From the IMG/VR virus record IMGVR_UViG_3300001580_000009: a stretch of 64,000 nt of DNA; one strand, given 5' to 3'. Below are positions 5,497 through 46,353 of this stretch, in pieces. The DNA is from an uncultured virus (IMG/VR IMGVR_UViG_3300001580_000009). Its lineage: Duplodnaviria > Heunggongvirae > Uroviricota > Caudoviricetes. Each line of letters starts with the position of its first letter. The first letter of the stretch is position 1. The notes below the pieces were generated by a model. It was not told the DNA's origin. It did not search any database and saw only the letters and a list, made by a program, of their open reading frames with translations. The position numbers were made by a program, and so were the translations under genes.

Positions 5497-6291
5497 TTAA
5501 TTCAACTTATTAGGGTTTAATTTACACTTATCACCGTGAAATTGACTAAATGATGACGGGGCGATTCGTCTCCCGCACCACTTGCAATTCTTTTTATTTG
5601 CAGGGTTTCTACTATAATGTTTGTCCCCTGATACTTTTTCTAATATTTTAGGATCATGCATTGGATTGGGTATAGAGGACAATAATTCTTTTAACCGTTG
5701 ATTTTCTTTCGGGTTCTCTTGTAAAAATCTTATCCTAGAATCGCTTTGTTTCCTATTAACATCGGGATTTCTACTAGGATTTTCTGCCCCCTTCATAAAG
5801 TCACTGTGATTTTTTCTTTTAGCTGGATCATTGTTGTTATGATTAATTTTATTGGATTCTCCGATTTTAATTTTAGTAGTTTCTTTGCATGGTCGTTTAG
5901 TGTTGTGTCTAATGTCACTAATCTTTTCTCTTAACTTGCGATACTCGTCCGGTGATAAAACTACTCGTTTCATTCTAGTATTTGACCTCGTTGCCATGTT
6001 CCAATATGCGTTAAACATTGCTTTTTGAGCATCACCTCTTGTAAATAAAGTGAGTAGTTTATGGCACAGTAAATGTTCGTCTGCGGTGAGTAATACCTGA
6101 TTCCATTTTTCTAGACCAAATTCGGGGAACAAGGATCTAGGCAATATATGATGATTTTCATAATAGATAAATTCTACTGAAGACCGTTTGTGTCTTTTTC
6201 GCTTTTGAAGGATTGCGTCAGTTACTATTTTGTAGTATTGTTCTAGCGATTCGGATTCAATAAATAACCCGTTGGTTTGATAAATATTCAT
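5497..6291 (-). CDS. HNH homing endonuclease
   Basis: YYENHHILPRSL...NQVLLTADEHLLCH; C-terminal CKWC...HGDKC; start set at ATG 6291 behind GGAG. Confidence 0.88.
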   Translation of the reverse strand: MNIYQTNGLFIESESLEQYYKIVTDAILQKRKRHKRSSVEFIYYENHHILPRSLFPEFGLEKWNQVLLTADEHLLCHKLLTLFTRGDAQKAMFNAYWNMATRSNTRMKRVVLSPDEYRKLREKISDIRHNTKRPCKETTKIKIGESNKINHNNNDPAKRKNHSDFMKGAENPSRNPDVNRKQSDSRIRFLQENPKENQRLKELLSSIPNPMHDPKILEKVSGDKHYSRNPANKKNCKWCGRRIAPSSFSQFHGDKCKLNPNKLN

Positions 6292-6356
6292 GCTGGTGCT
6301 CCGTAATAGCATTAGAGTAGTTGGGGTTTCCTAGGCCCGCGAACTACACTTATTTA
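6281..6356 (+). ncRNA. endonuclease-associated structured element, copy 1 (predicted fold antisense to the HNH gene)
   Basis: TAAATA-TTCATG-CTGGTGCT ccgtaat AGCATTAG-A-GTAGTT-G-GGGTTT cct AGGCCC-GCG-AACTAC-ACT-TATTTA. The repeat is directly visible; RNA function is inferred. Confidence 0.65.
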
Positions 6357-7814
6357 TCATTTATACTCCAATTTTTCTATCGTAAAGGGATATCGGGCCT
6401 CTTTGTAGAATGACTTTCTCTGAGTGAGGTGCCGTTTAGCGAATTTACAGCTTGACGTAATATCCCATATTACAACTTCGTCCTTGTCCTTAGCCTTTCT
6501 AATACCACGCCCAATTGATTGTATAACCCGTACAAAGCTCTTTCCGGGTTCCAAAAGAACCAGATTAAAAATACGAGGGATATTAATACCCACAGCGGCC
6601 ACACCGTAAGTCGCCACAATAACCTTGTCATCACTAGTCGCAACCTCATCATATTCTTCTTTACGCTCAGTTAGTTTTGTATTACCAGATACAAACACTG
6701 CACCCGGAATTCTATTAATTAATTCTTTGCCTGCATTTACTCTATCAACAAGAATCAGTGTATTCCCGGATGATTTGATATTCAGTACAAGTTGGGCGAT
6801 CATGTCTAAACGTTTTTGATCTTCCAGCAAGTGCTTTAGTTCACTTTGATAATTTGTAAATTCTACCTTATCCTGCAATTGAACAATGTTCACATGACAT
6901 TGTGCTAGAACACCCCGATCTTGTAGTTCACTGGCAGACAACTTGCCGATCACATTACCCAATGACACGAATAATGACTGTGCATTAAACTTTTCTTTGG
7001 GGATAGTACCAGTTAGACCCCAACGAATTGGTACATGTGCAAACACACTTGTTAATAGTGTCTTCAACACTTCAGCCTTTGCCATGTGTACCTCGTCAAC
7101 CATGATACACACTACATCCTCAACAAAGTCTTGAATCGTAAATCCTTCTTTACCTGATTGTGTATCTTTCAGTAGATTGTTCAACGATTGCCAGGTACAA
7201 ATGGTATGCTTCTTACCCCACTCTTTACGCTCACCGAAGTATACACCTACGTCTAATCCTACGTTGATATAATCTTCTTCAGTTTGTGTGACAAGACTTT
7301 TGTTTGGTACGATGACTACACTTCGTCCATATTCCTGTACGCTATAACTAAGAGCAGCAGTAGTAATTGTTTTACCTGCACCTGTTGCTACCTCTTGAAT
7401 AGATTGTGGGTTCTCTAAGAAACGATTGATTACGTCTACTTGATAGTCACGCAACTCAATAGGTTCGTTTTCCTTAGGATGACCTTTAGGCCAAGTGTAT
7501 TTTGAAAATGTGTTTGGCGTGACCTTTGTGAAGTTAAACGATGTGGAATATTCCCGCAGGTCTACTAGTTCAATGTCATACCCAGCTTGATCTAGTAATG
7601 GCAATATCTCGGGTAATAGGTTGATGTATGTTGCACCACCTAAGCTAAAGTAACTTACCTTACCGTTCCATCGACCTAATCGGACACTTGGATGATATCG
7701 AGCGCCGGGCTTCTCGTACTCAAACATGCGTAGCAGGGTTTTTCTGTCAGCTAACTCCAAATTTTCGATTTTACAGTTAACTTCATCCTTAATAATTAGC
7801 GTACACTTTTTCAT
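6357..7814 (-). CDS. uvsW: UvsW-like SF2 DNA helicase
   Basis: Walker A ATGAGKT, DEVH, GLTGT, QSIGRGIR; start trimmed to MKKCTL. Confidence 0.92.
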   Translation of the reverse strand: MKKCTLIIKDEVNCKIENLELADRKTLLRMFEYEKPGARYHPSVRLGRWNGKVSYFSLGGATYINLLPEILPLLDQAGYDIELVDLREYSTSFNFTKVTPNTFSKYTWPKGHPKENEPIELRDYQVDVINRFLENPQSIQEVATGAGKTITTAALSYSVQEYGRSVVIVPNKSLVTQTEEDYINVGLDVGVYFGERKEWGKKHTICTWQSLNNLLKDTQSGKEGFTIQDFVEDVVCIMVDEVHMAKAEVLKTLLTSVFAHVPIRWGLTGTIPKEKFNAQSLFVSLGNVIGKLSASELQDRGVLAQCHVNIVQLQDKVEFTNYQSELKHLLEDQKRLDMIAQLVLNIKSSGNTLILVDRVNAGKELINRIPGAVFVSGNTKLTERKEEYDEVATSDDKVIVATYGVAAVGINIPRIFNLVLLEPGKSFVRVIQSIGRGIRKAKDKDEVVIWDITSSCKFAKRHLTQRKSFYKEARYPFTIEKLEYK

Positions 7815-7860
7815 TATAATATTATATTGTAATTGTTTAGAGAATAAAATTGTTTCGGAA

Positions 7861-7938
7861 TAAATAAAAGTGAGGATCGCGGATCTGGACAATCCCACCC
7901 TCTCTATGATTGTAAAGGAATCACAGCAATGTTATTTA
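7861..7938 (-). ncRNA. endonuclease-associated structured element, copy 2 (most divergent, compensatory changes)
   Basis: Minus strand: CTGTGATT cctttac AATCATAG-A-GAGGGT-G-GGATT gtcca GATCC-GCG-ATCCTC, between TAAATA/TATTTA boxes. Confidence 0.6.
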
Positions 7939-8480
7939 GTAGAAAGCACCCTCCTCCAGGGTTTTATGTGTATGCTTATATAAGAGAAGACGGCACTCCT
8001 TATTATATTGGTAAGGGTCAAAGAAAAAGGGCCTGGGCACTACACAAAACAACTAATCAAAAAATCAATGTACCTAATAATCCCGATAACATCGTGATTC
8101 TAGAAAGTAATCTAACCGAAGTCGGAGCATTTGCGATTGAGCGGAGATTAATCAATTGGTTCGGCCGAAAAAATATCGGCACCGGAACATTATTAAACAA
8201 AACGGAAGGTGGGGAGGGTTTGTCGGGATATAGGCTCACTGAATCTCATAAAGAAAAAATAGGTAAGAGCAACAAAGGTAAAAAGCCTGCTGAAATTACT
8301 ATTCGATTGGCTTCCGAATCCAGAACTAAATTACTAACCGGGGTACCTAGGCCTGAATGGGTCAAAGAAAAGTTAAGAAAACCCAAATACAAAGTTCAAT
8401 GTCCATATTGTAGTTCAGAAGGGGGTGTCAGCGCAATGCGACGTTGGCACTTTACTAATTGCCCTCAAGCTTTACGTTGA
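7929..8480 (+). CDS. GIY-YIG homing endonuclease
   Basis: [19 protein letters not shown]...ERRLI...N-x-TEGGEG, NUMOD3-like region, CPYC. Confidence 0.9.
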   Translation: MLFSRKHPPPGFYVYAYIREDGTPYYIGKGQRKRAWALHKTTNQKINVPNNPDNIVILESNLTEVGAFAIERRLINWFGRKNIGTGTLLNKTEGGEGLSGYRLTESHKEKIGKSNKGKKPAEITIRLASESRTKLLTGVPRPEWVKEKLRKPKYKVQCPYCSSEGGVSAMRRWHFTNCPQALR

Positions 8481-8510
8481 CTTCATCTTTAACAATTATT
8501 TTACACTGTT

Positions 8511-9521
8511 TCATTTAACCTCTACTGGATTGGAGTTTACTATTACTACGATTTTTGAATAACTCTGTACGTCTTGATTTAACGTTATTGTGATAAGAGA
8601 CCTCAATAATACGGGGTTCTTAGCCTGCGCAGGTGAAGTTATAACTGGTATGCCTTGACTCTCGCATTCTTTACAAAAATCAACAACACGTGTACGAACA
8701 TTCATTGGGCGATTTGTTAATCTATAGTTTCTAGGTTCAATACCATCTATATCTAAGTCTTTCATCCACTGGATGATATTAAACAAATCATCTACTTCTA
8801 CGAATACAACACCTGTGCCCGCAAAACGTTTAAAGGATGTATTCAATATTGAATCATGAATCTTTACACCATGTGCCGATAGTGTAAACAATGTTTTGGG
8901 GTCGTCGTTTAGTGTAATGTCTTTGATGGCATTGTCTAAAAATTCATTAGATGCCGCGATCAAGAATCTATCATTTACTTTGATAAGTGTAGGAGCCCAA
9001 TATTGTACATCTTCGTATAACTTAACCTTATTTAGTAACTCAGTAGTTACTGGGCAGAAATTAACCAAGTCATAATTTTTAGTGACTACCTTTACCCCTG
9101 CACGTAATCTGTTGGTCGTGAATGGTGCTTCGTATCTACGTGCTTTCTTATCCCACGTAAAATCACTACCATCATTCTCATACCCACACAAACTGTCAAT
9201 TACTTTTCTGTTGTAGGGACATTTAATAAAGATTGTATTGTTTTCGATTGAAATGAACGCGCCAATATATTCAGGCGCACTTTCCACGACCTGAGTTTTC
9301 CAAGGTAATGTCAGTAACTGCTCAATGTCTACCTTTTGTTTTTCAAATTGCCGATTGTACTTTCTAGCAATCTTTTCAAACAACAAAGATTGGTTAGAGG
9401 TGATCATCTTTTTCTTGTCTATCACCATAAAAATATCAGTGATAAATTTCTCGTCATACCTGCTTAGCCGGTACTTGCCACTAAGCATTAGAGTTAAAAT
9501 ATCTTCGCGGGATTTACACAT
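8511..9521 (-). CDS. hypothetical protein
   Basis: 336-aa ORF, no motif recognised. Confidence 0.7.
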   Translation of the reverse strand: MCKSREDILTLMLSGKYRLSRYDEKFITDIFMVIDKKKMITSNQSLLFEKIARKYNRQFEKQKVDIEQLLTLPWKTQVVESAPEYIGAFISIENNTIFIKCPYNRKVIDSLCGYENDGSDFTWDKKARRYEAPFTTNRLRAGVKVVTKNYDLVNFCPVTTELLNKVKLYEDVQYWAPTLIKVNDRFLIAASNEFLDNAIKDITLNDDPKTLFTLSAHGVKIHDSILNTSFKRFAGTGVVFVEVDDLFNIIQWMKDLDIDGIEPRNYRLTNRPMNVRTRVVDFCKECESQGIPVITSPAQAKNPVLLRSLITITLNQDVQSYSKIVVIVNSNPVEVK

Positions 9522-9563
9522 TTCAATATGATAACATATTTACTAGTAGCAAATAAAGGAAAA

Positions 9564-9581
9564 AGGGGACCGAAGTCCCCT
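9564..9581 (-). terminator. intrinsic terminator, C(UUCG)G hairpin
   Basis: GGGGAC-TTCG-GTCCCC then T-run after the RNA ligase. Confidence 0.8.
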
Positions 9582-9598
9582 ATTGTTTTCAGGTTAAA

Positions 9599-10624
9599 TC
9601 AGTTACCCGTCTTAAGCAAAAACTTGTTAGAAATTGCCTTGAAGGACACTAGACCATTATGCTTGAACACCAATCCTTCACGTTCAAAACCATCGTTAAG
9701 CTTGCTCTTAGCTTCTGCGAACTTCAGAATGTGTTCCACAGATTGGATGCCCAATGTATCGTAAAACTCAGCATTGTACGCAATCACAGGAACATGCTTC
9801 AACCCATTACGCTCAACAAATGCGATACGTTCAGCAGGGCTGAGGTACCGTTGTTCATTGATATCAAACACATCGTAAACATAGAAGTCCTGACCCTTGA
9901 TCTTGTACGGGTTACCCTGAATGCCTTCGCCAATCAGTTCACCTTGAACGGCGAAGTTACCTTCTCGCATGAGAACTTCCTCAAGGTTGTAACGACGGGC
10001 TTGTGCCCAAAGACTGTTACCCGCAGTTTCCTGCAGGGCCCAGTTACGAGAGCAAACGCCAAACTTACCATCCTTGAAGTAGACCGTCATGCTAGAACCG
10101 TCAAGCTTTTCAGTGATTTCCCAACGCATGTCAGTAGCTTGCCAAGCCTTGAATTCTTCAGTCAAGTTTTGGATACGTTCCTGATCTGTCTTGGGAACAA
10201 AGCTGGGAAAGGGACCTTCAACATCACCTGCAAGTTGAGCCGGGATAGGTGCTTCCCACTTTTGGATGCCGAGTAGATCGGTTATATCTCGTCCTTCTTG
10301 AATGTCGATTGGTCCGATTTTTCCGTATACGGCATTGATCGGGATTAGTAGGCCCTGACTGACCTGACCACGCAACTTTACGGTACGCAGGCGCTCACCC
10401 TTCACACCGTTGTACTCGCGTGGTTCACTGCCCTTGCTCAGAAACGGAGCAAGAGCATTTGGTACCCAGCTATCGATTTCCAAATACACAGCAAGGTCAC
10501 TGACCTTGAATTCACCCTTCTTGACAACCACAACCCATCCACCGACTACTGCGGCTTCAATGGCATCAGCACCTTCAATCGGACGCAGTTCAGAAATCTT
10601 ACGAATTGTAGCCATTTTACGCAT
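9599..10624 (-). CDS. ATP-dependent RNA ligase, DRB0094-like family
   Basis: Motif I TEKLDGSS, QGELIG, EGLVFK, FKAIS. Confidence 0.9.
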   Translation of the reverse strand: MRKMATIRKISELRPIEGADAIEAAVVGGWVVVVKKGEFKVSDLAVYLEIDSWVPNALAPFLSKGSEPREYNGVKGERLRTVKLRGQVSQGLLIPINAVYGKIGPIDIQEGRDITDLLGIQKWEAPIPAQLAGDVEGPFPSFVPKTDQERIQNLTEEFKAWQATDMRWEITEKLDGSSMTVYFKDGKFGVCSRNWALQETAGNSLWAQARRYNLEEVLMREGNFAVQGELIGEGIQGNPYKIKGQDFYVYDVFDINEQRYLSPAERIAFVERNGLKHVPVIAYNAEFYDTLGIQSVEHILKFAEAKSKLNDGFEREGLVFKHNGLVSFKAISNKFLLKTGN

Positions 10625-10634
10625 TTTGTTTTCC

Positions 10635-17467: not shown

Positions 17468-17479
17468 CACAAACTGGAC

Positions 17480-17556
17480 TAAATAAAAGTGTAGTTCGCG
17501 GAACGGGAATTCCCAACTACTCTAATGCTATAGAGGAGCATCAGCATGTGTATTTA
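17480..17556 (-). ncRNA. endonuclease-associated structured element, copy 3
   Basis: Minus strand: CTGATGCT cctctat AGCATTAG-A-GTAGTT-G-GGAAT tccc GTTCC-GCG-AACTAC, between TAAATA/TATTTA boxes. Confidence 0.65.
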
Positions 17557-18271
17557 TTGCGGAACAACCAAATATCGTAAAATTTACGAAAAACATTACG
17601 GTCTAATTCCAAAAGAAGAAAATGGGAGGAGTTACGAAATCCACCATATTGACGGCGATCATTTTAACAATGATCCAAATAACTTAAAAGCGGTAACATT
17701 GCAGGAACACTACGATATACATTATCGGCAAAAGGATTATGCTGCGTGTATCCTGATTGGAAGGAAACTTAAAGTAGATCCTGAGACTTTGACTGAGCTT
17801 AACCGACAACAAAATAATATAAGAGTACTGGCCGGGACTCATCATCTTTTAGGGGGATCAATACAGAGAAAAGCCAGCCGGGCTAGAGCGAAACAGGGCG
17901 TCTTAGGATTTCAAAATAAAGAAAATTTAATTAAGGCTAATCAAAAAAGAGATATAATCATCCAACAAAAAATTAATGCAGGTGAGTGGATTTTACAGGA
18001 TCCCGAGTTCCATAAAAAACATGTAAGGAATCAGATTAACAAAGGATTACATTGTTCCCAAAAAAAGATGACCTGCATACATTGCGACAAAACATTAGAT
18101 TCTGCTAATTACAGCAGGTCACATGGAGGAAACTGTAAAATGTTCACTGGAATAATTAAAAAGAACAAAAAACATCCACCTAGGCAAAAACTTACATGCG
18201 AGAATTGCGGTAAGATCATGGACTCATCAAACTTCAGCAGACATGGCCACGGACCTACTTGTACTAGATAG
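17546..18271 (+). CDS. HNH homing endonuclease
   Basis: YEIHHIDGDHFNNDPNNLKAVTLQEHYDIH; two C-terminal CxxC...HG..C fingers. Confidence 0.9.
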   Translation: MCIYCGTTKYRKIYEKHYGLIPKEENGRSYEIHHIDGDHFNNDPNNLKAVTLQEHYDIHYRQKDYAACILIGRKLKVDPETLTELNRQQNNIRVLAGTHHLLGGSIQRKASRARAKQGVLGFQNKENLIKANQKRDIIIQQKINAGEWILQDPEFHKKHVRNQINKGLHCSQKKMTCIHCDKTLDSANYSRSHGGNCKMFTGIIKKNKKHPPRQKLTCENCGKIMDSSNFSRHGHGPTCTR

Positions 18272-26184: not shown

Positions 26185-27243
26185 TTAACTGAGGACNGCA
26201 AAGAANGGCAAGGGAGCTATGAACTCATCGTGGTCTCGTATCTGCGTTTCTAAATCAAAGTGGTAGTCACTTAACTGCTGCAAAATTCTAACAACTAGCA
26301 GCGAAGCCATAACCAAATCATCAGTTTCGCCCACTTTAGCTTCATAACTCCCACCCGACGCAATGAAAGCTTTCAGTTCAGAAATCAACGAATGACTATG
26401 CACCTTCATTTTCTTACTTTCGAGCAAATACTTAAACTTAGCACATGCTGCTAACTTAACCTTATGTGTCGTGTTGAATCCTTTGCGCTTCTTTCCTGAT
26501 TCACTAATAAATATTCCGGGGATATTGCTTTCACCGTACTCATTAAGTGATATTAATGCCGCTTCACCGATGCTATTATTTTCAATGGAATAATACAGGT
26601 TATTNGGCTCNCCGGTATGCTCTACGATATATTTGTTTATTTGTGCNAATAACTTAATCTGACTGGGAATATCAGTCTTGTTGTGCTTCCACTCACCTAT
26701 CTGCTCNGTAGTNTTAGCATNAAATATTTGAATAGCTGCNGGGTCACTACCAGTTCCTAAACTTGGGTCTAACGCTACTACGTGAATATGACCTTTTTGT
26801 GGTTTTTTGTACCAACGAACCTGACCCATTCTATGAATAGGCTCTGTGCCCTCTAATTCAATTAGCGTGGTAGGGGCTATTAATGTTTCATCTGCAATAA
26901 TAAATTCGCAATTAGAACAAAGAATATCATTGGCAAAGAATCGCTTGTTAGAACCTACATTAACGATATCATACACGATTTCAATGCAGTTTTCAGTTAC
27001 ACTAACAACTTTTTGAGTACCATTCAATGTCAATACAATGTCGCCGACTTTTAACTGGTCGGCGGGAATTTTTTCCATAGTCTCTAAAAATACATGATGA
27101 TCTGGGGTAAGTGTTATCGAAGTATTTTCCAATTTTACCGTAACGGTGTGCATAGCACCTTTATTTACAACACCAGTAAATGATTGCCAACCGGTATCCG
27201 TTAATATTTCCAAACCTAACTTATTTTTTATTAATTCTTCCAT
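26185..27243 (-). CDS. terL: terminase large subunit C-terminal part fused to split-intein C fragment
   Basis: 111-aa IntC (TPDH block B, VYDIVNV block F, ILCSN end), then CEFII...ALDPSLG...DDLVM nuclease domain. Confidence 0.9.
26911..27243 (-). mobile_element. split intein, C fragment (111 aa)
   Basis: Blocks B, F and G; ends Ser-Asn followed by Cys+1. Confidence 0.85.
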
Positions 27244-27895
27244 GCACAAATCCTTCGGGCTGCATTCCTTCTCTAAACTGTTTGTTAACATTTCCGTCAG
27301 TGAACCATCTCATTCCAATTTTAGATGAATTATTTATTAATCTACCTTTAGTAAATCCATCAGGAATTTGGTTTCCATAATATTCGGTGATCCCATCATT
27401 ATACCATACCTTACCCAACGAAGTTCCTATTCTGCCTCTCTGAGAACTACTTATCCGCTCACATCTTTTAGCGTCTTTTAGAAAGTCATAATAACCTGGT
27501 TCTGATCGTAAAGAAAGTTGCACTTTTCTTTCTGCATCTGACCATTTGGTCCCTTTCTTTCTTCCACCGGTACCAGGTAATTTAAGCCCTTTATTCCATG
27601 GCGTTTTGTTTCCTCCGCCATCCCCGCCGTCGGTAAGGTTTCGTAATATTCCAGTATTTAAATCTTTTCTACCGTACCACCTAATAAGCCGTCTCTCCAG
27701 TGCCAGAGCACCTATTTCAGTTAATGATTGTTCTATGATAACAATTCTTTTACACGGAGGTCTCTTTATAGTTTCATGTAACTGCCACGCCCGTTTTTCT
27801 TTTCCCTTACCTATATAATAAGGAGTTCCATCACTCCTGAGGTAGGCGTAAACATAATATCCATGCGGAAGATATCGTGTCGAATAAATATTCAT
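27221..27895 (-). CDS. GIY-YIG homing endonuclease between the terL halves
   Basis: [19 protein letters not shown]...[10 protein letters not shown]; two W(Y/F)xDG repeats; start at ATG 27895 behind GGAG. Confidence 0.9.
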
Positions 27896-27963
27896 GCTGA
27901 TTGCTCCTTGTAGCGTTAGAGTAGTTGGGGAGGTGAGATTCCCGCGAACTACACCGTTATTTA
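27885..27963 (+). ncRNA. endonuclease-associated structured element, copy 4
   Basis: CTGATTGCT ccttgt AGCGTTAG-A-GTAGTT-G-GGGAG gtgaga TTCCC-GCG-AACTAC, between TAAATA/TATTTA boxes. Confidence 0.65.
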
Positions 27964-28880
27964 TCAGCATTTAATATTTTCTCCAATTCAGCCATAGTGG
28001 CTGTAAATATTTTACCATTATTATCTCGTAAGGTCATCGATGTATTGCTGCTGAAGCACCCGATTTCTCGACGGAATCTTTCTTCGCCCAATTGGGCCTG
28101 CATCTCAGCCGCCCATTTTTCATCTCTGCCGGGCTGTTCATTCCAGTATGCTCGATAAGACTTGAATCCGTTAACACCTAATTCAGTTTTGTTTCCGTAT
28201 TCGTCTAGGCACTTATTAGCACCCTTCCAAATCAATGCAAATTGATCTTCATCACTGTTAGGAGTACTAGTAATAATTGCTTTACCACCAGTAGACAAAG
28301 TAGGCGTGATTGAGGTCCAGAATAACTCAGCTATGGAAGGCCTAACGAATGCGAACTCGTCTAAGTATAGCAATGAAATAGACATACCACGACCCGTATT
28401 TTCTGTCGTGGTAGCTGAAACGATGCGAGAACCGTTCTCGAAATCGAGCGAACCCTTGTTATAAGTAGTCACGCCTGCTTTGATATGATCAGGGCAGTTT
28501 TCATACGCATAACGTATGCGCTGCATAATTTCCTGCGCGCCTGAATACTTGTGTGCTGCGATAAGAATGGTACTATCGGGCACAAACATAGCATACCATA
28601 ATAAATAACCTGCTGCGCTGGTTGATTTACCAGACTGTCTAGGCATCAGGCTAATACTATAACGATAATTGTGATATGTTTCAATTAATCGTTTTTGATA
28701 ATCCCATGGGTGGTAGAGCATACTACCTTTTGTGGGGTGCTGTATATAGAAATAATTATCCATAAAGTATAAGTAACCCGTCTTGGGGTCACAGCACTTT
28801 ATGAAATCCTGTAGTTCTTGGTCATTCTTAAAATGAGTCTTTACGTACGGATCTTTAACTAATGATGGTGCTCCGCTCAT
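27957..28880 (-). CDS. terL: terminase large subunit N-terminal ATPase part fused to split-intein N fragment
   Basis: [27 protein letters not shown] then CFSSNT (intein block A). Confidence 0.93.
27960..28058 (-). mobile_element. split intein, short N fragment (33 aa)
   Basis: [33 protein letters not shown]. Confidence 0.85.
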
Positions 28881-28919
28881 GCCAAAAAATACTCTCAAAA
28901 TATGAGAGTATTTATCACG

Positions 28920-33419: not shown

Positions 33420-33657
33420 ACTTTAATTTCCAATATGTATAATTTTCAGGGGTGAATGTCGCTTGAATAATATATTCAAACCCAAATATATTTGGGTCTA
33501 ACATACGATGCCAAGTAGGTCTATCGACAGAATTATTCATTACCCATTGACCCTTTTCGCTTTTTTCCCAATTGATCATGGGTTCGGCAGCGATTAAATC
33601 AGGGTCTTCTGAATCTAATAATGAAAATCTATGTACGATAACCTTAACTGTTTTCAT
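33412..33657 (-). CDS. small hypothetical protein
   Basis: Ends TYWKLKYE. Confidence 0.65.
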   Translation of the reverse strand: MKTVKVIVHRFSLLDSEDPDLIAAEPMINWEKSEKGQWVMNNSVDRPTWHRMLDPNIFGFEYIIQATFTPENYTYWKLKYE

Positions 33658-34577
33658 ACTGCCATTACAGCCTTAATAGGACCATGACTTTGATAGTTCA
33701 CTAATTCTATATCATTCATTGTGAACTTGTCAATGTTTACAATATCCTTATTCAGTTGTAATGTAGGTAATGGGAATTCTTCCCTAGTCAATTGTTCTTT
33801 AACTTGCTCAATATGGTCTTTATAGATATGGGTATCACCAGTGCTAATTACAAGTTCGCCCACACCATAATCACATACTTGAGCAATCATATGAGTAAAC
33901 AATGAGTAGCTAGCAATATTGAATGGTAAACCCAAAAAAACATCCACTGATCTTTGGTACATATGGCAGCTTAGTTCTTTGTTTTTATTTACATAGAACT
34001 GTGCCATCATATGACAGGGCGGCAGTGCCATTTGATCTAATTCGCCCGGATTCCAAGCAGTAATGATATGACGACGACCATTAGGATCGTTCTTCAACCC
34101 ATTAATGAGATTTTTTAACTGATCCGTTTCCTTTTCATGGAAGTAACTTTGACGGTTGTATTGGCTACCGAACGAATCCTTGTACGTTTCTTGTGCGTGT
34201 TCAATGGGCGTTTTCCAGTGCCGCCACTGTACCCCGTAGACTCTGCCCAAGTCACCTTCGAACTTAGCCTTAGGCTTCCAGTAAGGCGCGAGGGCGTTCG
34301 GCGTCCAGATCGTAACTTTACCCTCACGGGATCCATGGGTGAGTTCTGCCAATCTACGTTCATCGGATGATCCTTCTAAAAACCACAACAACTCCCCGAC
34401 TACTGCCCTCCAAGCTAATTTTTTAGTAGTAATAGCCGGAAATCCGTGCCGCAAGTCAAACCGAAGTTGCCTACCAAATACTGACAGTGTTCCTGTTCCA
34501 GTACGATCTCCTTTTTCTTCCCCATTTTCTAAAATATCTACGAGTAGATTATGGTATTGTTTCATATATTCTTTCAT
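33654..34577 (-). CDS. thyA: thymidylate synthase
   Basis: [35 protein letters not shown]. Confidence 0.97.
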
Positions 34578-35230
34578 TTAGTCCAGCGCAAAAAGTTTCC
34601 GAGATTCATTTCTTTTCTATCAGAAATTCTGCAGACGGTCTTCATCTGTGGTTTACCCTTCATCGGTGATTGTTTACCTTTTTGTGATTTTGATTTTTCT
34701 TTTGCGAGTATAGCATACTTATCGGGATTGTCAAGTCTGTCACAGTATTGTCGGAAATTAGGCATGTCCATTTCTTTCTTATCAGATAATCTACATACCG
34801 TCTTTGCTTTCTTTACTCCCAATTGTCTTTTTGTAGTCCATGGGTTTTTTCTACCCTTCAGAGCCTTGGAAACATTATTTCCATGACCATTGCATTTTTT
34901 CTTGCGTTGTTTTTGTTTATGATCTTCGGATTTAGGTCCGTGGGCACCATCTCCTCCGTCAGTGCGATTCATTAGAATTCCTGTTCCCAAATCTTTTCTA
35001 CCATACCACCGAATAAGACGGCGTTCTAACGCTAACGATCCTGTTAATGTTAACCGGTGTTCTATTATTACTATTTTGGTAGGATCGTCAGGTACACTAA
35101 CAGCATGGTCCTTTGACCATGCTCTTTTGCGTTGCCCTTTGCCTATATAATATGGTGTATTGTTTGACTGACGCAAATAAGCGTAAACATAGAATCCAGT
35201 AGGCGGATTTGATTTTGAATAAATACTCAT
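34574..35230 (-). CDS. GIY-YIG homing endonuclease between DHFR and thyA
   Basis: FYVYAYLR...PYYIGKG...NRTDGGDG; duplicated KTVCR(L/I)SD-KEM. Confidence 0.9.
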
Positions 35231-35296
35231 GCTGGTGCTCCGTAATAGCATTAGAGTAGTTGGGGAGTGGACGCCCGCGAACTACACTATTATTTA
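35220..35296 (+). ncRNA. endonuclease-associated structured element, copy 5
   Basis: CTGGTGCT ccgtaat AGCATTAG-A-GTAGTT-G-GGG agtggacg CCC-GCG-AACTAC, between TAAATA/TATTTA boxes. Confidence 0.65.
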
Positions 35297-35368
35297 TCAC
35301 CGAACACACTTCAAAGCTGTATATAAGTTGAAGACAATCAACAGTATTGTTAATATTTCAACTGTCAC
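35297..35368 (-). CDS. possible 23-aa hydrophobic mini-ORF
   Basis: GTG overlapping the DHFR stop, GGAG upstream; MTVEILTILLIVFNLYTALKCVR*. Confidence 0.3.
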   Translation of the reverse strand: MTVEILTILLIVFNLYTALKCVR

Positions 35369-35820
35369 CTACGTCTCCAAATTTCGTAATCATGATCTGT
35401 GTGCCGTTCTTTAAAGTGGCACATAAATTCTTGCTCTAATTTTACTAAATCGATAAACGTATCGCAAGTATATTCGGCTAGGGTGCGGGTAAGATGTATT
35501 TCTTTGATTTGATACCAACATGTCTCAATTAGTTTAGCACCGCCAATTAGCCAAACGTTTTGTAGTTTGTACAATTCTTTTAGCTCATTGATACAGACTG
35601 CACCTTTGGGCGGCAAGAAAAGTCTATTCGTAACAATGTAATTTGTTCTTTTGGGTAAGGGTTTAATAGGTAAACTGTCCCACGTATTTCTACCCATAGC
35701 CACAACTTGGCCTGATGTTAATTGTTTGAATCTAGGCAAATCACCCTGGATATTGTCCCAGGGTAATTTATTGTTGTAGCCTATTCCCCCGTTAGGATCA
35801 CAAGCAACGATTAATTTCAT
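35365..35820 (-). CDS. folA: dihydrofolate reductase
   Basis: IG..NKLPW, D..RFK, MGRNTWDSL, PLPKRTN, IGGA. Confidence 0.95.
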   Translation of the reverse strand: MKLIVACDPNGGIGYNNKLPWDNIQGDLPRFKQLTSGQVVAMGRNTWDSLPIKPLPKRTNYIVTNRLFLPPKGAVCINELKELYKLQNVWLIGGAKLIETCWYQIKEIHLTRTLAEYTCDTFIDLVKLEQEFMCHFKERHTDHDYEIWRRR

Positions 35821-40991: not shown

Positions 40992-41008
40992 TTTGTCTCC
41001 TTAAAAAT

Positions 41009-41269: not shown

Positions 41270-41278
41270 GATATTTCC

Positions 41279-41614
41279 TTAGTGGACAGTGCGATAGATA
41301 CGATACGTGACACCTTGATTGGTCACACGCTTTTCGTAACCTTCTTTTTCGTAGTCACTTTCAAGCAGGGCAAGAGTCTTACGGTCGCGAACCAGGGCAC
41401 CATCGACCTTGACGCTGATAAACTTCTTTCGATATTCAATGTGAACTTCCTTGGCAGCGTAGACCATTTCCAGGGCAAGCTTGGCACGTTCAGCCTTGAT
41501 TTTGTCTCGGTCGGAATACAGACTAGAATTCACAGCACTACGCATGCGGGCATCGCGGGCCGCAAACCAAGCATACTGACCTGCAGCCTTGTTTTCCAGT
41601 TCCTTAACAAACAT
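41279..41614 (-). CDS. hypothetical early protein
   Basis: GGAG RBS, behind an early promoter. Confidence 0.7.
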   Translation of the reverse strand: MFVKELENKAAGQYAWFAARDARMRSAVNSSLYSDRDKIKAERAKLALEMVYAAKEVHIEYRKKFISVKVDGALVRDRKTLALLESDYEKEGYEKRVTNQGVTYRIYRTVH

Positions 41615-41647
41615 TTCGTACTCCGTTATTTAACTGTCTAAGACTCT

Positions 41648-41676
41648 ATTATATACGAAACCGGATTTATCGTCAA
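41648..41676 (-). promoter_or_regulatory. sigma70-type early promoter
   Basis: TTGACG-ATAAATCC..(17)-TATAAT. Confidence 0.8.
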
Positions 41677-41679
41677 ATT

Positions 41680-42090
41680 TTACTTCTCGCCAATCGCTCG
41701 GCGAAGTAGAATTTCCTGCTTACTGTATGCTTCAATTTCCCAAGGCCGATCCAAATAGTTGACTTTCTTGCTATACTTCTTGCCAGCCCAAATGATAGAA
41801 CCGTTCTTTTCGTACCGCATCGTGCCCTTGGCCATTTGTTTAACATGAACCATTTCGTGGGCAAGGGTGATGCCCAAATCTTTGAGATTCTTGACAGGGC
41901 GCAATACGATCAAGTAAATCCCGGTAGCTTCGGTGAGGTCAATAGCGACACCATCATGTTCGCATTCAGGGGAAAACAAAACTTGTACCATTTTGCGGCA
42001 ATTGTCTAGCTTCAACTGGCTAATAATGGACGGCATGATCGCTTCCGCGAACTTCTTATTGCGACCACGACCTTCAATTAGATATTCCAT
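41680..42090 (-). CDS. zincin-like metallopeptidase
   Basis: LAHEMVHVKQ ... PWEIEAY. Confidence 0.8.
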   Translation of the reverse strand: MEYLIEGRGRNKKFAEAIMPSIISQLKLDNCRKMVQVLFSPECEHDGVAIDLTEATGIYLIVLRPVKNLKDLGITLAHEMVHVKQMAKGTMRYEKNGSIIWAGKKYSKKVNYLDRPWEIEAYSKQEILLRRAIGEK

Positions 42091-42111
42091 AATTAGCTCC
42101 TGATTAATTAC

Positions 42112-42140
42112 ATTCTATATTAACCAGGAATTATTGTCAA
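42112..42140 (-). promoter_or_regulatory. sigma70-type early promoter
   Basis: TTGACA-ATAATTCC..(17)-TAGAAT. Confidence 0.8.
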
Positions 42141-42141
42141 G

Positions 42142-42399
42142 TTAGTCCATTATTCTTGCCATGAGTATCAGACTATTAAGATGGTTTAATGAACTATTGA
42201 TTTTATCAAGTTGGTCTTGTACATGAATACTTGACTTTAATCGTCGGCTATTCACTTCAAGCTTGCTAAGTTCAGTAACCATACTGTCAATGTTTCTAAG
42301 CATTTTTTGAAGGTCGGGATTGTAACTTAACTGTGACAGTTCTTTTCGCAAATTGTCACAGGCTTCCCGACCCTCAGAAACATTATGTACGGTTATCAT
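42142..42399 (-). CDS. hypothetical coiled-coil protein
   Basis: 85 aa; TTGACA-17-TAGCAT at 42406-42434 just upstream. Confidence 0.65.
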   Translation of the reverse strand: MITVHNVSEGREACDNLRKELSQLSYNPDLQKMLRNIDSMVTELSKLEVNSRRLKSSIHVQDQLDKINSSLNHLNSLILMARIMD

Positions 42400-42430
42400 A
42401 GTAGAATGCTACTACCAAATTCGTTTAATG

Positions 42431-44386
42431 TCAAGGTGGGCATGTTCCCCAAACTGGTCTTGATAAAGTCCAGGATGTCGCTCCGGTGTCGAAATCTACT
42501 GGCAACACTGGTATTAAACTGACGCACCATGTACTAAGGTCTTGATTGAATGCTGTTGCATTTCTAAACATATAATTCATGTTAGATACCGATATAGTGT
42601 TCCATGCACTGATATCCTGATTAAATTGTTGTGCTCCGCTGAACATATTACTCATGGTAGAGACTTTACTAACGTTCCAGTTGCCAATTGGTTGATTGAA
42701 CTCTGAATTAACAAACATGCTACGCATGTCAGTCACGTTGCCAGTATTCCATGTATTAAGAGGCTGATCAAATACGGATATATTAAACATCGAAGACATA
42801 TTCGTAACTTTACTAACATCCCAATTACCGATAGGTTGATTGAACAAACTAGGTCCAGTGAACAAGCTTCCAGCAAACATAGCTTGCATATCAGTGACAT
42901 TGCCAGTATTCCAGCTGCCAATCGATGGGTGATTGAATACGGATGCCCCAAACATTTGAGCCATATTTGTGACAGAACTGGTGTTCCATCCGCTTAAGTC
43001 TTGGTTAAAGGCCAATGAGCTATTAAACATATATCTCATATCAGTAACTTTACTGACATCCCAAGATCCAATTGGCTGATTAAAAGCCTTTGCCTGAGCG
43101 AACATATTAGACATAGAAGTAGCATTACTAACGTTCCATGTACCAATTGGTTGGTTAAATACCCATGTTCTGAAGAACAGGCCGGCAAATTCAGTAACAT
43201 TACTCACGTCCCAATCTAATACATTTGGATGATTGAATTTTTCGGTTCCTGACAACATGTACAACAAGCTAGTCATTGTTGATGGTATATAGTTAGGCAA
43301 ATATTCTAAATTTTTACAACCGTCAAACATCCAATCAGCTAGTATAATATCTAATGTACCCCAATCAGTAACACCGGTTATATTATAGTTCCATGACATT
43401 TCTAACGAATTCGTTTTTCCATATAACTTAGCAGTGTAAATGGCAGGTGTGCTATAGGTGTGTGAAATATAATCTTCTGGATTCGTGTATTGTTCTATTA
43501 CACCATCGCCCCAATCGACTGTAAGATTTGCATCACTCGCCGCTAGCATGTATATACCAGTGTCAATATTAGCGTCGATTGTTAAAATCATTGGTTGCGG
43601 GCATGTACCCCATACTGGTTTAGGCAATGTCCACAAATTAGCACCCATATCAAATGCGCTCGGTGCCGTTGGTATCAATGACACACACCAGTTACTCAAA
43701 TCTTGATTAAATGCTGATGCTACGTTAAACATATAATTCATGTTTGTGACAGAAGAAGTATCCCAACCGCTAATGTCTTGATTAAATGCGGTAGCATAAC
43801 TAAACATGTAACTCATATCAGTGACATTACTAACATTCCAATTGCCAATTGGTTGGTTGAATATAGTAGCCTGATAGAACATATTATTCATGTTGGTGAC
43901 GTTTGAGGTATCCCAACTCAGAACGTTAGGGTCATTAAAACTAGCCGTATATAAAAACATACCACTAGTATCTGTCACGGTAGATGGAAGGTAGTTAGGG
44001 ACTTTCGTTAAGTTTACCCACTGCCTAAAGGCATAACTTAAACTCGTCATTCCCAAATTACCCCAATCAACAACTTCAATAAAACTTGCTAACCAACTAA
44101 TTCCGCCGTATTGTGCTCCTATCCGATCTGTTGTTCCAGTAACACTGATGGTAAAGACCTCATCCGTCGAGTAATAATGATTGGCTGGCCCGTATGCGGG
44201 TTCAATCGTCCCATCTCCCCAATCAATTGTAACTTCCGTAGTCCACCCAAACGGAATTTGAACAGTTCTCCCGTAGTTCGTGTCAACTTTCAGTGTGAAC
44301 GCCGAAGTCGGAGGAGGGGGCGGAGGAGGATCTCCACTAAACGATATGTACACACCATTCAAAAATACATTGTCTAAGTTAATCAT
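42431..44386 (-). CDS. BspA-like/DUF285 repeat surface protein with PKD-like domains
   Basis: Many W(D/N)(T/V)S.VT.M..MF...FNQ repeats; two (I/V)DWGDG domains; TATAAATA upstream. Confidence 0.85.
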   Translation of the reverse strand: MINLDNVFLNGVYISFSGDPPPPPPPTSAFTLKVDTNYGRTVQIPFGWTTEVTIDWGDGTIEPAYGPANHYYSTDEVFTISVTGTTDRIGAQYGGISWLASFIEVVDWGNLGMTSLSYAFRQWVNLTKVPNYLPSTVTDTSGMFLYTASFNDPNVLSWDTSNVTNMNNMFYQATIFNQPIGNWNVSNVTDMSYMFSYATAFNQDISGWDTSSVTNMNYMFNVASAFNQDLSNWCVSLIPTAPSAFDMGANLWTLPKPVWGTCPQPMILTIDANIDTGIYMLAASDANLTVDWGDGVIEQYTNPEDYISHTYSTPAIYTAKLYGKTNSLEMSWNYNITGVTDWGTLDIILADWMFDGCKNLEYLPNYIPSTMTSLLYMLSGTEKFNHPNVLDWDVSNVTEFAGLFFRTWVFNQPIGTWNVSNATSMSNMFAQAKAFNQPIGSWDVSKVTDMRYMFNSSLAFNQDLSGWNTSSVTNMAQMFGASVFNHPSIGSWNTGNVTDMQAMFAGSLFTGPSLFNQPIGNWDVSKVTNMSSMFNISVFDQPLNTWNTGNVTDMRSMFVNSEFNQPIGNWNVSKVSTMSNMFSGAQQFNQDISAWNTISVSNMNYMFRNATAFNQDLSTWCVSLIPVLPVDFDTGATSWTLSRPVWGTCPP

Positions 44387-44439
44387 TACTAATCCTCGTA
44401 GGGCTTTAGTATTTATATAGTTTTGCTATCCATTAAAAT

Positions 44440-44455
44440 AGGCACCTAAGTGCCT
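44440..44455 (-). terminator. intrinsic terminator
   Basis: AGGCAC-TTAG-GTGCCT-ATTTT. Confidence 0.7.
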
Positions 44456-44460
44456 TATTT

Positions 44461-45330
44461 TTAGAGTTTGCCTTCTTGTTTCATTTTTTCTCGTATCTTT
44501 GTTGCCGAGATAGAATGAATACTTTCATCAAACGTTTCTTGTTCAATCTTATAACCTACATCACGACCATATGTAATGTTCACAATGTTAGGTACAACTA
44601 AGATTTCATATTGCCCCTGAAATAGTGGGTCTAAATCTCTACGAATATAGCTTTTAACTTGCTCAATAGCGAATGGATTACTGTTATTCCAACCTTGACA
44701 ATCACGTATCATGATAACGACTTGTCCAGTCTTGGCAATTGCTCGTTCAAACAACGCACGATGCCCTTCATGCCATGGTTGCCAACGCCCGAGCATTTGA
44801 ACTGTTTCTTTCTTCCAATCAAATACCGGACGGCGCCGTTCTTCTAAGATATGATTGCCTACAAATTCTACCCACTTTTCAGCGTTTTGCTCTGTGATTC
44901 TAAAATCATACATGTCAGGCGGGACAAACGCTTTGTTGGTGTCTTCATAACGACCTTGATCAATTGTGTCCATCCAAATCGTCCAGTCTGCTTTGAAGTT
45001 GTGACGCATTTCGGGCAGCGGCGCGACGAAATCACAGATAACAAAGTCACCGGTACACTTCAACGCAAACTCAAACATGCGTAGACTTTGACGAATGCGA
45101 CCTTCACGGCTGAAATCCCAGTCATTAAAACGACGACGAATTTCGTCAGCATTAAACCAATCTACTTTTACATCATAGAAATGCTTAGGTGGGATACCCT
45201 CATACATTGCAAAACGTATCGGGTCAATCTTTTCTGCATCACCATTTTCTTCTAAATACTTCTTTAGACGTTCAGCGAAGTATGTTTTGCCCGAGCCTGG
45301 CAGACCCATAATTAAAATTCTTTTTGCCAT
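44461..45330 (-). CDS. adenylyl-sulfate kinase-like domain fused to a HIGH-type nucleotidyltransferase domain
   Basis: GLPGSGKT...NADEIRR...DFS.EGR; C-terminal GRWQPWHEGH...ISATKIR. Confidence 0.8.
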   Translation of the reverse strand: MAKRILIMGLPGSGKTYFAERLKKYLEENGDAEKIDPIRFAMYEGIPPKHFYDVKVDWFNADEIRRRFNDWDFSREGRIRQSLRMFEFALKCTGDFVICDFVAPLPEMRHNFKADWTIWMDTIDQGRYEDTNKAFVPPDMYDFRITEQNAEKWVEFVGNHILEERRRPVFDWKKETVQMLGRWQPWHEGHRALFERAIAKTGQVVIMIRDCQGWNNSNPFAIEQVKSYIRRDLDPLFQGQYEILVVPNIVNITYGRDVGYKIEQETFDESIHSISATKIREKMKQEGKL

Positions 45331-45400
45331 ATAATTCTCCTTGAACTATTATAGCAATATTTAAGGTCTATGTATATAGTTTGATTAAAACTATTCGCCC

Positions 45401-45586
45401 TTACTTGCGTAATAATGGGGGAATACCTGCTCCACTGACATTGAACCCAAATGCTTTAGCATTCTTTTTTATTGTGTCTGGCTTGATGTCCACTGTTAAC
45501 GCCATGCAGTATCTATGGTCGTTTTTCTCTTTCTCTGAGGGAATATAACCAGATGCGGATTCTTTTATTATTTCATTTATTTTCAT
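45401..45586 (-). CDS. re-started C-terminal module of the 46351-47700 gene
   Basis: MKINEIIKE-SASGYIPSEKEKNDHRY..ALTV duplicates the upstream gene end; own TAAATA box. Confidence 0.75.
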   Translation of the reverse strand: MKINEIIKESASGYIPSEKEKNDHRYCMALTVDIKPDTIKKNAKAFGFNVSGAGIPPLLRK

Positions 45587-45597
45587 TAAACTATTTA

Positions 45598-46287
45598 TTA
45601 TTTACAATATTTTCCCTTTAGATGCCTTGATAATTGACTCATCCCTTTTCCCTGCTTGCCACATTTTTCACAGGTCCATGTTTTATGAGCAGGATGAGTT
45701 CCGGTTTCTAACATTTTTTGTATAGGATGCGTCCCCTCTTCAAATTTCTTTTTATTTAAAGTTGAACCTAAAAAATTATGTGTTCCGTCTTTTACTCTTT
45801 TGAAATTAGTTTCCTTACCAACAGATGATCCGTCTTTGTTCTTTAAGAAGGGGTGTGTGCCTTTTTTGACTTTATTAAGTTCTTTTTCTCTAGCCCAATC
45901 TTTGTCTAAAAAATGAAAAGTACCCTCATTTATTTTTTGATAAATTGATTCTAATTGCGCTTTTCTAGAATTCGAACCTGATAAAAAATTATGCGACCCG
46001 TCAGCAATTCTTTGTTTAGCATTTTTTCTAGATAATTCAGACCTTTGCTCGTCTGTCAAAGTTAAATTTCTAGCAATCAAATTACAGGCTCCCCAATCTT
46101 CTTGTAAATAATGAATATCAAAATGTTCTTTTATAGATACTGCTTTTAAATTTTCAGGGGAATTATTGGAACGATTTCCATCAATATGATGTATTTCAAA
46201 TGACCTTCCGTTTGAATCTTTTGGTATGGGGCCATTATGGTTGATATAGATTCTACGGTACTTATTAGTACCACAATAAATACACAT
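45598..46287 (-). CDS. HNH homing endonuclease (paralogue of 17546-18271)
   Basis: MCIYCGT...FEIHHIDGNRSNNSPENLKAVSIKEHFDIH; G(T/S)H(N/P)F repeats. Confidence 0.9.
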   Translation of the reverse strand: MCIYCGTNKYRRIYINHNGPIPKDSNGRSFEIHHIDGNRSNNSPENLKAVSIKEHFDIHYLQEDWGACNLIARNLTLTDEQRSELSRKNAKQRIADGSHNFLSGSNSRKAQLESIYQKINEGTFHFLDKDWAREKELNKVKKGTHPFLKNKDGSSVGKETNFKRVKDGTHNFLGSTLNKKKFEEGTHPIQKMLETGTHPAHKTWTCEKCGKQGKGMSQLSRHLKGKYCK

Positions 46288-46353
46288 GCTGTAACTCCTT
46301 ATCAGTTATAGAGTAGTTGGGTGTTAGCGCACCGCGAACTACACTTTTATTTA
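46277..46353 (+). ncRNA. endonuclease-associated structured element, copy 6
   Basis: CTGTAACT ccttatc AGTTATAG-A-GTAGTT-G-GGTGT tagc GCACC-GCG-AACTAC, between TAAATA/TATTTA boxes. Confidence 0.65.

Follow-up and report, generated by a model that had tools for sequence, protein, structure and literature searches.

A portable structured cassette at the 5′ ends of homing-endonuclease genes in uncultured T4-like phages and its possible role in antisense-RNA control

In large phages the principal selfish elements are homing endonucleases, and to our knowledge the control that keeps them from doing harm has been clarified only for a few genes of T4, every one of which has a hairpin of its own. In this work, we analyzed a stretch of 64,000 nucleotides (hereafter the window) from the IMG/VR record IMGVR_UViG_3300001580_000009, which is part of a large T4-like phage and in which six homing-endonuclease genes each begin with a copy of one structured element of about 80 bp, here called the cassette. 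The structure of the cassette is real, and the view of a first-pass annotation, made by a model from the sequence, that it is a portable control module is retained; most likely, however, it is an antisense-RNA cassette rather than the sense-strand junction or cofactor that the annotation had envisaged.

Six cassettes and the genes behind them

All six copies were found where the first-pass annotation had placed them, and each overlaps the Shine-Dalgarno (SD) sequence, the ATG and codons 2-4 of one open reading frame (ORF), as that annotation had claimed for the ribosome-binding site (RBS) and first codons of six endonucleases (Table 1). When the 64-kb window was searched with a covariance model trained on 116 relatives of the cassette, exactly these six copies were returned, with scores of 78-97 bits and E values of 3e-19 to 9e-25; the sole extra match, of 21 bits, was to copy 5 read on its reverse strand. 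The window contains five exact occurrences of the 13-mer GTGTAGTTCGCGG, and with up to three mismatches it gives 19 matches versus 7.5 ± 2.7 in shuffles. Aligned on the nuclease strand, the six copies have sharp edges, starting with NTAAATA and ending with TATTTA followed by T or G, and their flanks are unrelated. The order of parts, as in copies 1 and 3, is a sense box TAAATA, a hairpin termed P1/P2, UCUA, a hairpin containing the RBS, CAGC, the ATG and an inverted box TATTTA.

Table 1. Cassettes, their parts, the nuclease genes that they head and the predicted antisense RNAs in the window
Feature	Position	Strand	Score, basis or remark
Cassette copy 1	6281..6356	-	84.7 bits; model span 6279-6361
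Copy 1, parts	sense box TAAATA 6356-6351; hairpin P1/P2 6347-6317; UCUA 6316-6313; RBS hairpin 6312-6296; CAGC 6295-6292; ATG 6291-6289; inverted box TATTTA 6286-6281	-	
Cassette copy 2	7861..7938	+	78.0 bits; model span 7856-7940; variant P1 GAGGAT/ACCCTC
Copy 2, parts	sense box 7861-7866; P1/P2 7872-7902; RBS hairpin 7907-7923; CAGC 7924-7927; ATG 7929-7931; inverted box 7933-7938	+	
Cassette copy 3	17480..17556	+	97.2 bits; model span 17475-17558
Copy 3, parts	sense box 17480-17485; P1/P2 17491-17520; UCUA 17521-17524; RBS hairpin 17525-17541; CAGC 17542-17545; ATG 17546-17548; inverted box 17551-17556	+	
Cassette copy 4	27885..27963	-	79.6 bits; model span 27883-27968; between the two halves of the large terminase gene
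Cassette copy 5	35220..35296	-	87.0 bits; model span 35218-35301; between the dihydrofolate reductase and thymidylate synthase genes
Cassette copy 6	46277..46353	-	94.6 bits; model span 46275-46358
Homing endonuclease 1, HNH type, 264 aa	5497..6291	-	phrog_655 E 4.9e-22, phrog_12434 E 6.6e-17 (homing/HNH endonuclease)
Homing endonuclease 2, GIY-YIG-like, 183 aa	7929..8480	+	phrog_15526/10829, phrog_314/655, weak NUMOD3
Homing endonuclease 3, HNH_3, 241 aa	17546..18271	+	PF13392 E 4.9e-9
Homing endonuclease 4, GIY-YIG-like, 224 aa	27221..27895	-	phrog_15526/10829
Homing endonuclease 5, GIY-YIG-like, 218 aa	34574..35230	-	phrog_15526/10829
Homing endonuclease 6, HNH_3, 229 aa	45598..46287	-	PF13392 E 3.7e-12
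Predicted antisense RNA, copy 1, ~64 nt	6292..6355	+	inference
Predicted antisense RNA, copy 2, ~66 nt	7862..7927	-	folding, terminator scan
Predicted antisense RNA, copy 3, ~65 nt	17481..17545	-	folding
Predicted antisense RNA, copy 4, ~67 nt	27896..27962	+	inference
Predicted antisense RNA, copy 5, ~65 nt	35231..35295	+	inference
Predicted antisense RNA, copy 6, ~65 nt	46288..46352	+	folding

The three nuclease groups that had been recognized from the sequence stand in the Pfam, PHROG and PDB profile comparisons, as one HNH protein, two HNH_3 proteins and three GIY-YIG-like proteins. The nucleases of copies 2, 4 and 5 form one family (phrog_15526/10829), whose profile shows the residues Y..YIG..R..E..N and has GIY-YIG proteins as its best, though weak, PDB matches (E 8.5e-4).

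The cassette is not confined to this window. An exact gapped pattern taken from its core, in which P1 was fixed, found at least 124 IMG/VR stretches and five contigs of metagenome-assembled genomes, so that the metagenome search that the annotation had proposed reveals a widespread element. In five large phage records, two of them complete genomes of 360 kb and 195 kb, the covariance model counted 13, 8, 3, 8 and 1 cassettes. All eight cassettes of the complete 195-kb phage (G004; loci L134, L138, L142, L145, L148, L151, L154 and L157) belong to one sub-type with a longer RBS hairpin (GAACU/AGUUC, with a loop of 17-20 nt) and a varied P1, in which UCUA, CAGC and both boxes are kept. Among 50,697 GenBank phage records the cassette was absent, blastn giving no match at E 0.01 and only chance pieces of 18-23 nt at E 10, and megablast of 12 kb of the window found no close relatives among GenBank phages.

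To survey the genes headed by the cassette, 73 ORFs of at least 85 aa behind pattern matches with sufficient flank were collected. Nuclease or homing-endonuclease-type Pfam matches were obtained for 41 of them, and the Pfam families found behind the cassette were NUMOD3, GIY-YIG, SegE, I-TevI DNA-binding, HNH, HNH_3, AHH, Endonuclease_7, DUF7487 and DUF723. When 28 other ORFs were compared with PHROGs, 18 matched, 10 of these to a family described as endonuclease or homing endonuclease and the remaining eight only to phrog_15526/10829, which is labelled as of unknown function and is the GIY-YIG-like family of copies 2, 4 and 5. The 26 leftover ORFs, including those behind copies found by the model, are all similar in BLASTP to assigned ones, the similarity being confined to the C-terminal parts in L134, L151, L157 and L024 and weakest in L157 (E 9e-5 over 34 aa). 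About a dozen copies precede ORFs of only 4-75 aa, as is expected of decaying nuclease genes. Neither in the window nor in the loci examined did the cassette stand ahead of a clearly non-nuclease gene; the absence of such a case, first noticed in the window, thus extends to the tabulated relatives, and the idea of a portable module common to unrelated homing-endonuclease families is borne out.

One relative stands somewhat apart, namely the cassette of L128:438-743 (-), which precedes a 102-aa Endonuclease_7 protein (E 1.4e-23) of the resolvase type, not a classic homing endonuclease. T4 gene 49 is described as being under late-promoter and hairpin control as well (PMC2988022).

Covariation and the strand that folds

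Selection on structure is evident in the alignment of the 116 sequences (A3), which contains 187 doubly changed cells versus 43.5 ± 5.1 in shuffles and has a covariation score of 0.196 versus 0.074; standard pairs make up 92.6% of the cells in the proposed helices versus 27-48% when the 3′ partner is slid. The compensatory changes that had been listed from six copies are real and become much stronger once relatives are added, and covariation is present in all stems. At the P2 pair 30-42, for example, AU occurs 61 times, GC 31, UA 12 and CG 9, and the RBS hairpin covaries at all five of its pairs. In P1, with the main form GTAGTT/AACTAC, the copies found by the model carry the compensated variants GTGAGT/ACTCAC, GTTAGT/ACTAAC, GTCAGT/ACTGAC, GTAGGT/ACCTAC and GTAGGC/GCCTAC, and in model-found variants the G-C pair between two bulged Cs becomes A-U. 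Two further outer P1 pairs, proposed by RNAalifold next to UCUA (A-U and G-C), were rejected; 38 of 106 sequences are non-Watson-Crick at one of them without compensation, and both compete with UCUA/CAGC pairing.

These pairing-preserving changes bear on whether the element acts as RNA at all. It could be a module of DNA or transcription without a functional antisense RNA, that is, an insulator, through interference or collision of transcription and a stop to antisense transcription, or a recombination handle for the swapping of nucleases. In keeping with this, P1, UCUA and CAGC are near-invariant while the P2 and RBS-hairpin alleles recombine freely among contigs, at least three nuclease families are joined to the cassette at the same codon, and the boundaries are sharp. 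However, compensated changes in three helices together with a strand-specific tolerance of G·U pairs, given below, are signatures of RNA that would not be expected of a DNA site, and a recombination handle has no need for a fixed spacing of 5 nt between box and hairpin on both strands. We therefore regard a DNA-level module as quite improbable.

Which RNA folds was examined in 106 distinct model-aligned sequences, since an A·C mismatch on one strand is a G·U pair on the opposite one. The non-Watson-Crick cells of the RBS hairpin comprise 54 A·C, one G·U and six others when read as sense RNA, so that standard pairing in this hairpin is 88.6% as sense RNA and 98.7% as antisense RNA. The flanking bases point in the same direction. 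UCUA and CAGC can pair with each other through a C-G pair in 105 sequences (with a compensated U-A pair in one more), a U-A pair in 106, and an A·C apposition in all 106 of 106; this invariant A·C is G·U on the opposite strand, and therefore a continuous 8-bp helix exists there only. The first-pass annotation had listed these among the invariant junction bases; the near-invariance of UCUA and CAGC stands, but they pair with each other, and better on the opposite strand. The antisense core is also the more stable one in 96 of 104 related sequences, with means of -17.8 versus -14.2 kcal/mol. In single copies of the window, folding gave -18.7 kcal/mol (z -4.18) for the antisense and -13.9 (z -1.28) for the sense strand of copy 3, -18.8 (z -3.05) and -14.6 (z -1.89) for copy 6, and -21.8 (z -3.07) and -10.5 (z +0.41) for copy 2.

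A sense-strand leader has to be weighed against these data. In this explanation the 5′ untranslated region (UTR) of the nuclease mRNA forms a junction of P1/P2 and the RBS hairpin, closed by pairing of the RNA of the outer box with TATTTA in read-through transcripts, which would shut off translation in the early and middle periods and leave it open in late transcripts, following the logic of I-TevI, segB and mobE. RNAalifold does predict this fold from the six copies, all stems covary and such covariation is strand-neutral for Watson-Crick changes, and the closing helix is possible only in longer transcripts, because the predicted late +1 is located immediately 3′ of the promoter arm. Moreover, four of the six nuclease genes in the window point in the same direction as the gene upstream of them, P1/P2 at the extreme 5′ end of a late mRNA could stabilize that mRNA, and the T4 precedent is solid (PMC2988022). 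However, when the window copies were folded with ±40-nt flanks the closing helix TAAATA/TATTTA was of high probability in only one of six, and no compensated change was found in either of its arms, the approximately five copies with TACTTA all retaining TAAATA upstream. The RBS hairpin is blind to the class of transcript, since the predicted +1 precedes both of its arms. Together with the A·C excess in and beside the RBS hairpin and the unremarkable sense z-scores, these observations make the sense-strand leader unlikely, and the three-way junction proposed by the annotation as a leader or cofactor is not upheld; the wobbles, the stabilities and the z-scores favour the opposite strand.

The near-invariant bases could alternatively belong to an RNA that binds a ligand or protein, such as a riboswitch, a ribozyme, or a binding site of the nuclease itself or of a translational repressor of the phage, for which the two single-C bulges around a G-C pair, UCUA and CAGC, almost invariant in more than 100 copies, would provide contacts. 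However, UCUA and CAGC are accounted for by their mutual pairing, no Rfam family matches with E up to 10, including all self-cleaving ribozymes and riboswitches, and the sharing of one element by unrelated nuclease families makes it unlikely that the nuclease regulates itself. A binding RNA is accordingly a very remote prospect. In the searches themselves, Rfam 15 at the gathering score gave only tmRNA models over the whole window and no match to the cassette; at E up to 10, the 1.8 kb with copies 1 and 2 gave three matches, none to the cassette as such, and copy 3 gave none. One of the three, a weak GOLLD match (16.5 bits; gathering score 150), lies across the antisense side of copy 2. A full-text literature search for the cassette core strings returned unrelated papers only, which agrees with the suggestion that the family has not been described before.

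Two promoter-like boxes and a predicted antisense RNA

A box resembling a T4-type late promoter, as the annotation had noted, is supported by motif evidence, and there are two of them. The sense box TAAATA is present in 104 of 105 copies and lies 5 nt from the first P1 base in 92 of the 105; the inverted box, TAAATA on the antisense strand and TATTTA on the nuclease strand, is present in 102 of 105, within codons 2-4, and lies 5 nt from the G opposite CAGC (GCUG) in 76. In T4 late promoters an 8-bp box, at -13 to -6, precedes the start by about one helical turn (PMC2988020), which leaves five bases between the box and +1, as on both strands of the cassette. The late box used by cyanomyoviruses is NATAAATA (PMC2984593), and the cassette box has the same form. 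In the window the same box also occurs 10-35 nt upstream of non-nuclease genes, including those of the 1108-aa virion protein and the N-terminal half of the terminase.

TATTTA occupies all three reading frames (81, 11 and 10 of 102) at a nearly constant distance to CAGC, therefore the constraint is on nucleotides and not on protein. Most of the cassette-headed nucleases, although unrelated, start with M-x-I-Y, which can be explained as a side effect of the placement of TATTTA after the ATG. The TATTTA after the ATG is better read as a second, inward-facing late promoter.

We propose, with moderate confidence, that the element is a convergent-promoter cassette that produces a cis-antisense RNA of about 65 nt restraining the nuclease. 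It would be a portable expression-control unit of about 80 bp, fused to the 5′ ends of free-standing homing-endonuclease genes in uncultured T4-like jumbo phages. First, the outer box would drive the nuclease mRNA, starting at the base of hairpin P1/P2, and the inner box, which lies in codons 2-4 and points backwards, would drive the antisense RNA, starting with GCUG, the complement of the invariant CAGC; both boxes would fire late. The antisense RNA would then fold into hairpin 1, with 8 bp and a 7-nt loop containing an anti-SD sequence, followed by one unpaired base, and into hairpin 2 (P1/P2), which with its U-rich tail has the form of an intrinsic terminator, the tail being complementary to the A-rich spacer and the outer box. 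P1/P2 may in this way serve both RNAs, forming the 5′-terminal hairpin in the mRNA and the terminator in the antisense RNA. Upon pairing with the nuclease mRNA, to whose entire 5′ UTR it would be fully complementary, the antisense RNA could block ribosome binding and/or create a substrate for RNase III, and nuclease synthesis would be capped and its dose kept low, in the manner of IS10 RNA-OUT. The copies and their spread, the covariation, the strand asymmetry, the matching geometry of the two boxes and the exclusive association with nucleases are observed in the sequences, whereas the firing of either box, the existence and termination of the antisense RNA and its repressive action are inferred.

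The predicted RNA of copy 1 would start opposite the last C of CAGC and end in the U-rich complement of the sense box. In copy 3, hairpin 1 has 8 bp and the anti-SD loop CCUCUAU and is followed by one nucleotide, hairpin 2 and the tail ACUUUUAUUUA. The predicted RNAs span the SD sequence and end 0-3 nt short of the AUG, and 5-7 U within the 9 nt behind hairpin 2 were counted in 116 of 117 copies.

Several observations weigh against this proposal. P1/P2 is strand-neutral, with 14 A·C versus 11 G·U, and could equally serve the sense mRNA, and the 104 stability values come from related sequences and are not independent. The U tail is interrupted by an A, and a simple terminator scanner flagged one of the three copies scanned (copies 1-3), namely copy 2 at 7896-7873 on the minus strand, leaving copies 1 and 3 unflagged. 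AT-rich DNA is expected downstream of any T4 late box (PMC2988020), and the A-rich spacer, and with it the U tail, could simply reflect this, so that the tail is a weak argument for a terminator. About five copies have TACTTA instead of TATTTA, and in L073, L106, L110 and L120 the sense box is displaced by 9-11 nt, leaving a poor U tail. Finally, the two promoters are of the same late class, and a simple role in on/off timing is not obvious.

Known systems and genomic setting

The closest functional parallel to the proposed antisense-RNA cassette is IS10, in which a promoter within the transposase gene produces RNA-OUT, an antisense RNA of 69 nt; this RNA binds the translation-initiation region of RNA-IN, and multicopy inhibition results (PMC5006887). 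Both are selfish elements with an outward-facing promoter just inside their own gene, which in the cassette is the predicted promoter of the inverted box, and with a short stem-loop antisense RNA to the translation-initiation region, here predicted at about 65 nt and covering the whole 5′ UTR including the SD sequence. In IS10 the paired mRNA is closed to ribosomes and activity is curbed when copies accumulate, and the cassette is likewise present in multiple copies per genome. Unlike IS10, however, the gene is a homing endonuclease and not a transposase, the promoters would be T4-type late boxes and not sigma-70 promoters, the RNA is predicted to have two hairpins instead of one and an explicit terminator-like end, the overlap ends just before the AUG, and the cassette is known from sequence alone.

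A wider version of this proposal, which we offer tentatively and consider doubtful, is that the cassette could be a plug-in antisense-RNA governor common to the homing endonucleases of a large clade of uncultured jumbo T4-like phages, analogous to multicopy inhibition in IS10. Its scaffold would be the invariant stem and junction, and its address labels the hypervariable, covarying P2 and RBS-hairpin alleles, so that each of the 6-13 cassettes per genome would mainly control itself, or co-infecting phages might cross-silence each other's nucleases, and the inner promoter would be what forces M-x-I-Y.

If the antisense-RNA proposal is true, at least three nuclease families have made use of one mobile RNA-based control unit in hundreds of genomes of uncultured phages, and the antisense copy-number control of transposons and plasmids also governs homing endonucleases. 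The cassette would be a compact natural part, whose 80 bp hold two late promoters, a terminator and an antisense RNA, and a sequence tag for free-standing nuclease genes and late promoters in metagenomic phages. It would also be a clean case in which the strand assignment of a covarying structure changes the inferred biology.

Among T-even phages, I-TevI, I-TevII, I-TevIII, segB and mobE of Aeh1 combine a late promoter with an RBS-sequestering hairpin (PMC2988022), and they resemble the cassette in having a late box directly upstream of the nuclease gene, the SD sequence in a hairpin and tight control of a selfish nuclease. However, the T4 hairpins are gene-specific and contain the promoter, so that the inhibitory hairpin, whose 5′ arm is missing from late transcripts, can form only when transcription has begun at a promoter further upstream (PMC2988022), whereas a single conserved cassette serves many families, the predicted +1 precedes both arms of its SD hairpin, an inverted box is conserved as well, and the fold favours the opposite strand.

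In ocean metagenomes, TATAAATA hairpins have been described upstream of gene-fracturing endonucleases (Dassa et al., 2009; PMC2677866). Those loci share with the cassette free-standing GIY-YIG or other endonucleases that split host genes in environmental, phage-like DNA, a late box and a complementary motif pair in the 5′ UTR, and copy 4 of the window likewise splits a terminase gene. However, the motifs in the Figure S4 tables of that study (e.g., gp41-1, NrdA and DnaE) are unrelated to the cassette core, and the hairpins there are simple and on the sense strand, with no inverted promoter or antisense RNA proposed in the available portions of the article.

An antisense RNA at a homing-endonuclease gene of a T4-like phage has a precedent in CfrI of cyanophage S-PM2, which is about 225 nt long, lies over the endonuclease gene and is co-expressed with it, in a phage group with the late box NATAAATA (PMC2984593). 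Unlike the cassette, CfrI links the endonuclease gene to psbA at a single locus and is not a portable multi-copy unit, and its function is given as unknown in the text available. A catalogue of more than 10,000 structured viral RNAs from viral metagenome contigs appeared in 2023 (PMC10690425), in which some unnamed candidates, DNAVirus_8080 and DNAVirus_8377 among them, are followed within 25 bp by a mixture of HNH, HNH_3 and GIY-YIG genes, a likeness that concerns the neighbouring genes alone. The cassette core strings were absent from the supplement files searched, which do not include the sequence files, and the main text, as far as available, does not discuss an endonuclease-linked motif (PMC10690425).

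The genes of the window include those for a helicase, an RNA ligase, UvsX, UvsY, a gp32-like single-stranded DNA-binding protein and endonuclease VII, as well as a T4-type terminase, thymidylate synthase (ThyA), dihydrofolate reductase (DHFR) and a baseplate wedge connector. The large terminase gene on the minus strand is split by nuclease 4 into an N-terminal half (27957-28898, Terminase_6N) and an ORF for the C-terminal half (26185-27291, Terminase_6C), which overlaps the 3′ end of the nuclease ORF by about 70 nt and has a weak, sub-threshold match to Intein_splicing (E 1.9e-4). The split is reminiscent of the "fractured genes" of ocean metagenomes (Dassa et al., 2009; PMC2677866). Nuclease 5 is flanked by the genes of DHFR (35365-35820) and ThyA (33654-34577), all on the minus strand, and its stop codon overlaps the start codon of thyA. 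The DHFR/ThyA neighbourhood in T4 carries the td intron with I-TevI.

At least two additional homing-endonuclease-like genes of the window lack the cassette, at 3597-4373 (+; phrog_655, E 1.8e-36) and 50339-51124 (+; phrog_314, E 1.5e-10). The latter has only a TATAAATA box at 50316, 15 nt ahead of its ATG; for the former, a degenerate cassette was considered at CTAAATA (3532) and was rejected, as the covariance model gave no match. Close by, at 51086-51503 (-), is a permuted two-piece gene for transfer-messenger RNA (tmRNA; 119 bits with Rfam tmRNA_permuted and 110 bits with beta_tmRNA), for which ARAGORN gives the tag peptide ANDDTYLLAANA; another TATAAATA box, at 51473 (-), lies within or just upstream of it.

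The overall number of promoter-like sites in the window was not above that in shuffles. Four perfect or near-perfect sigma-70 consensus promoters on the minus strand, which is the gene strand (13747-13719, 13661-13633, 10907-10879 and 17467-17439; one 12/12 and three 11/12), share the consensus TTGACA-17-TATAAT/TATACT and are probably early promoters. A single N stands at about 26144, in the start region of the 1108-aa virion-protein ORF. An ORF of 1922 aa at 51714-57482 (-) has no PHROG match at E 0.001, and it is followed by a hairpin-like sequence that adjoins a TATAAATA box at 51721.

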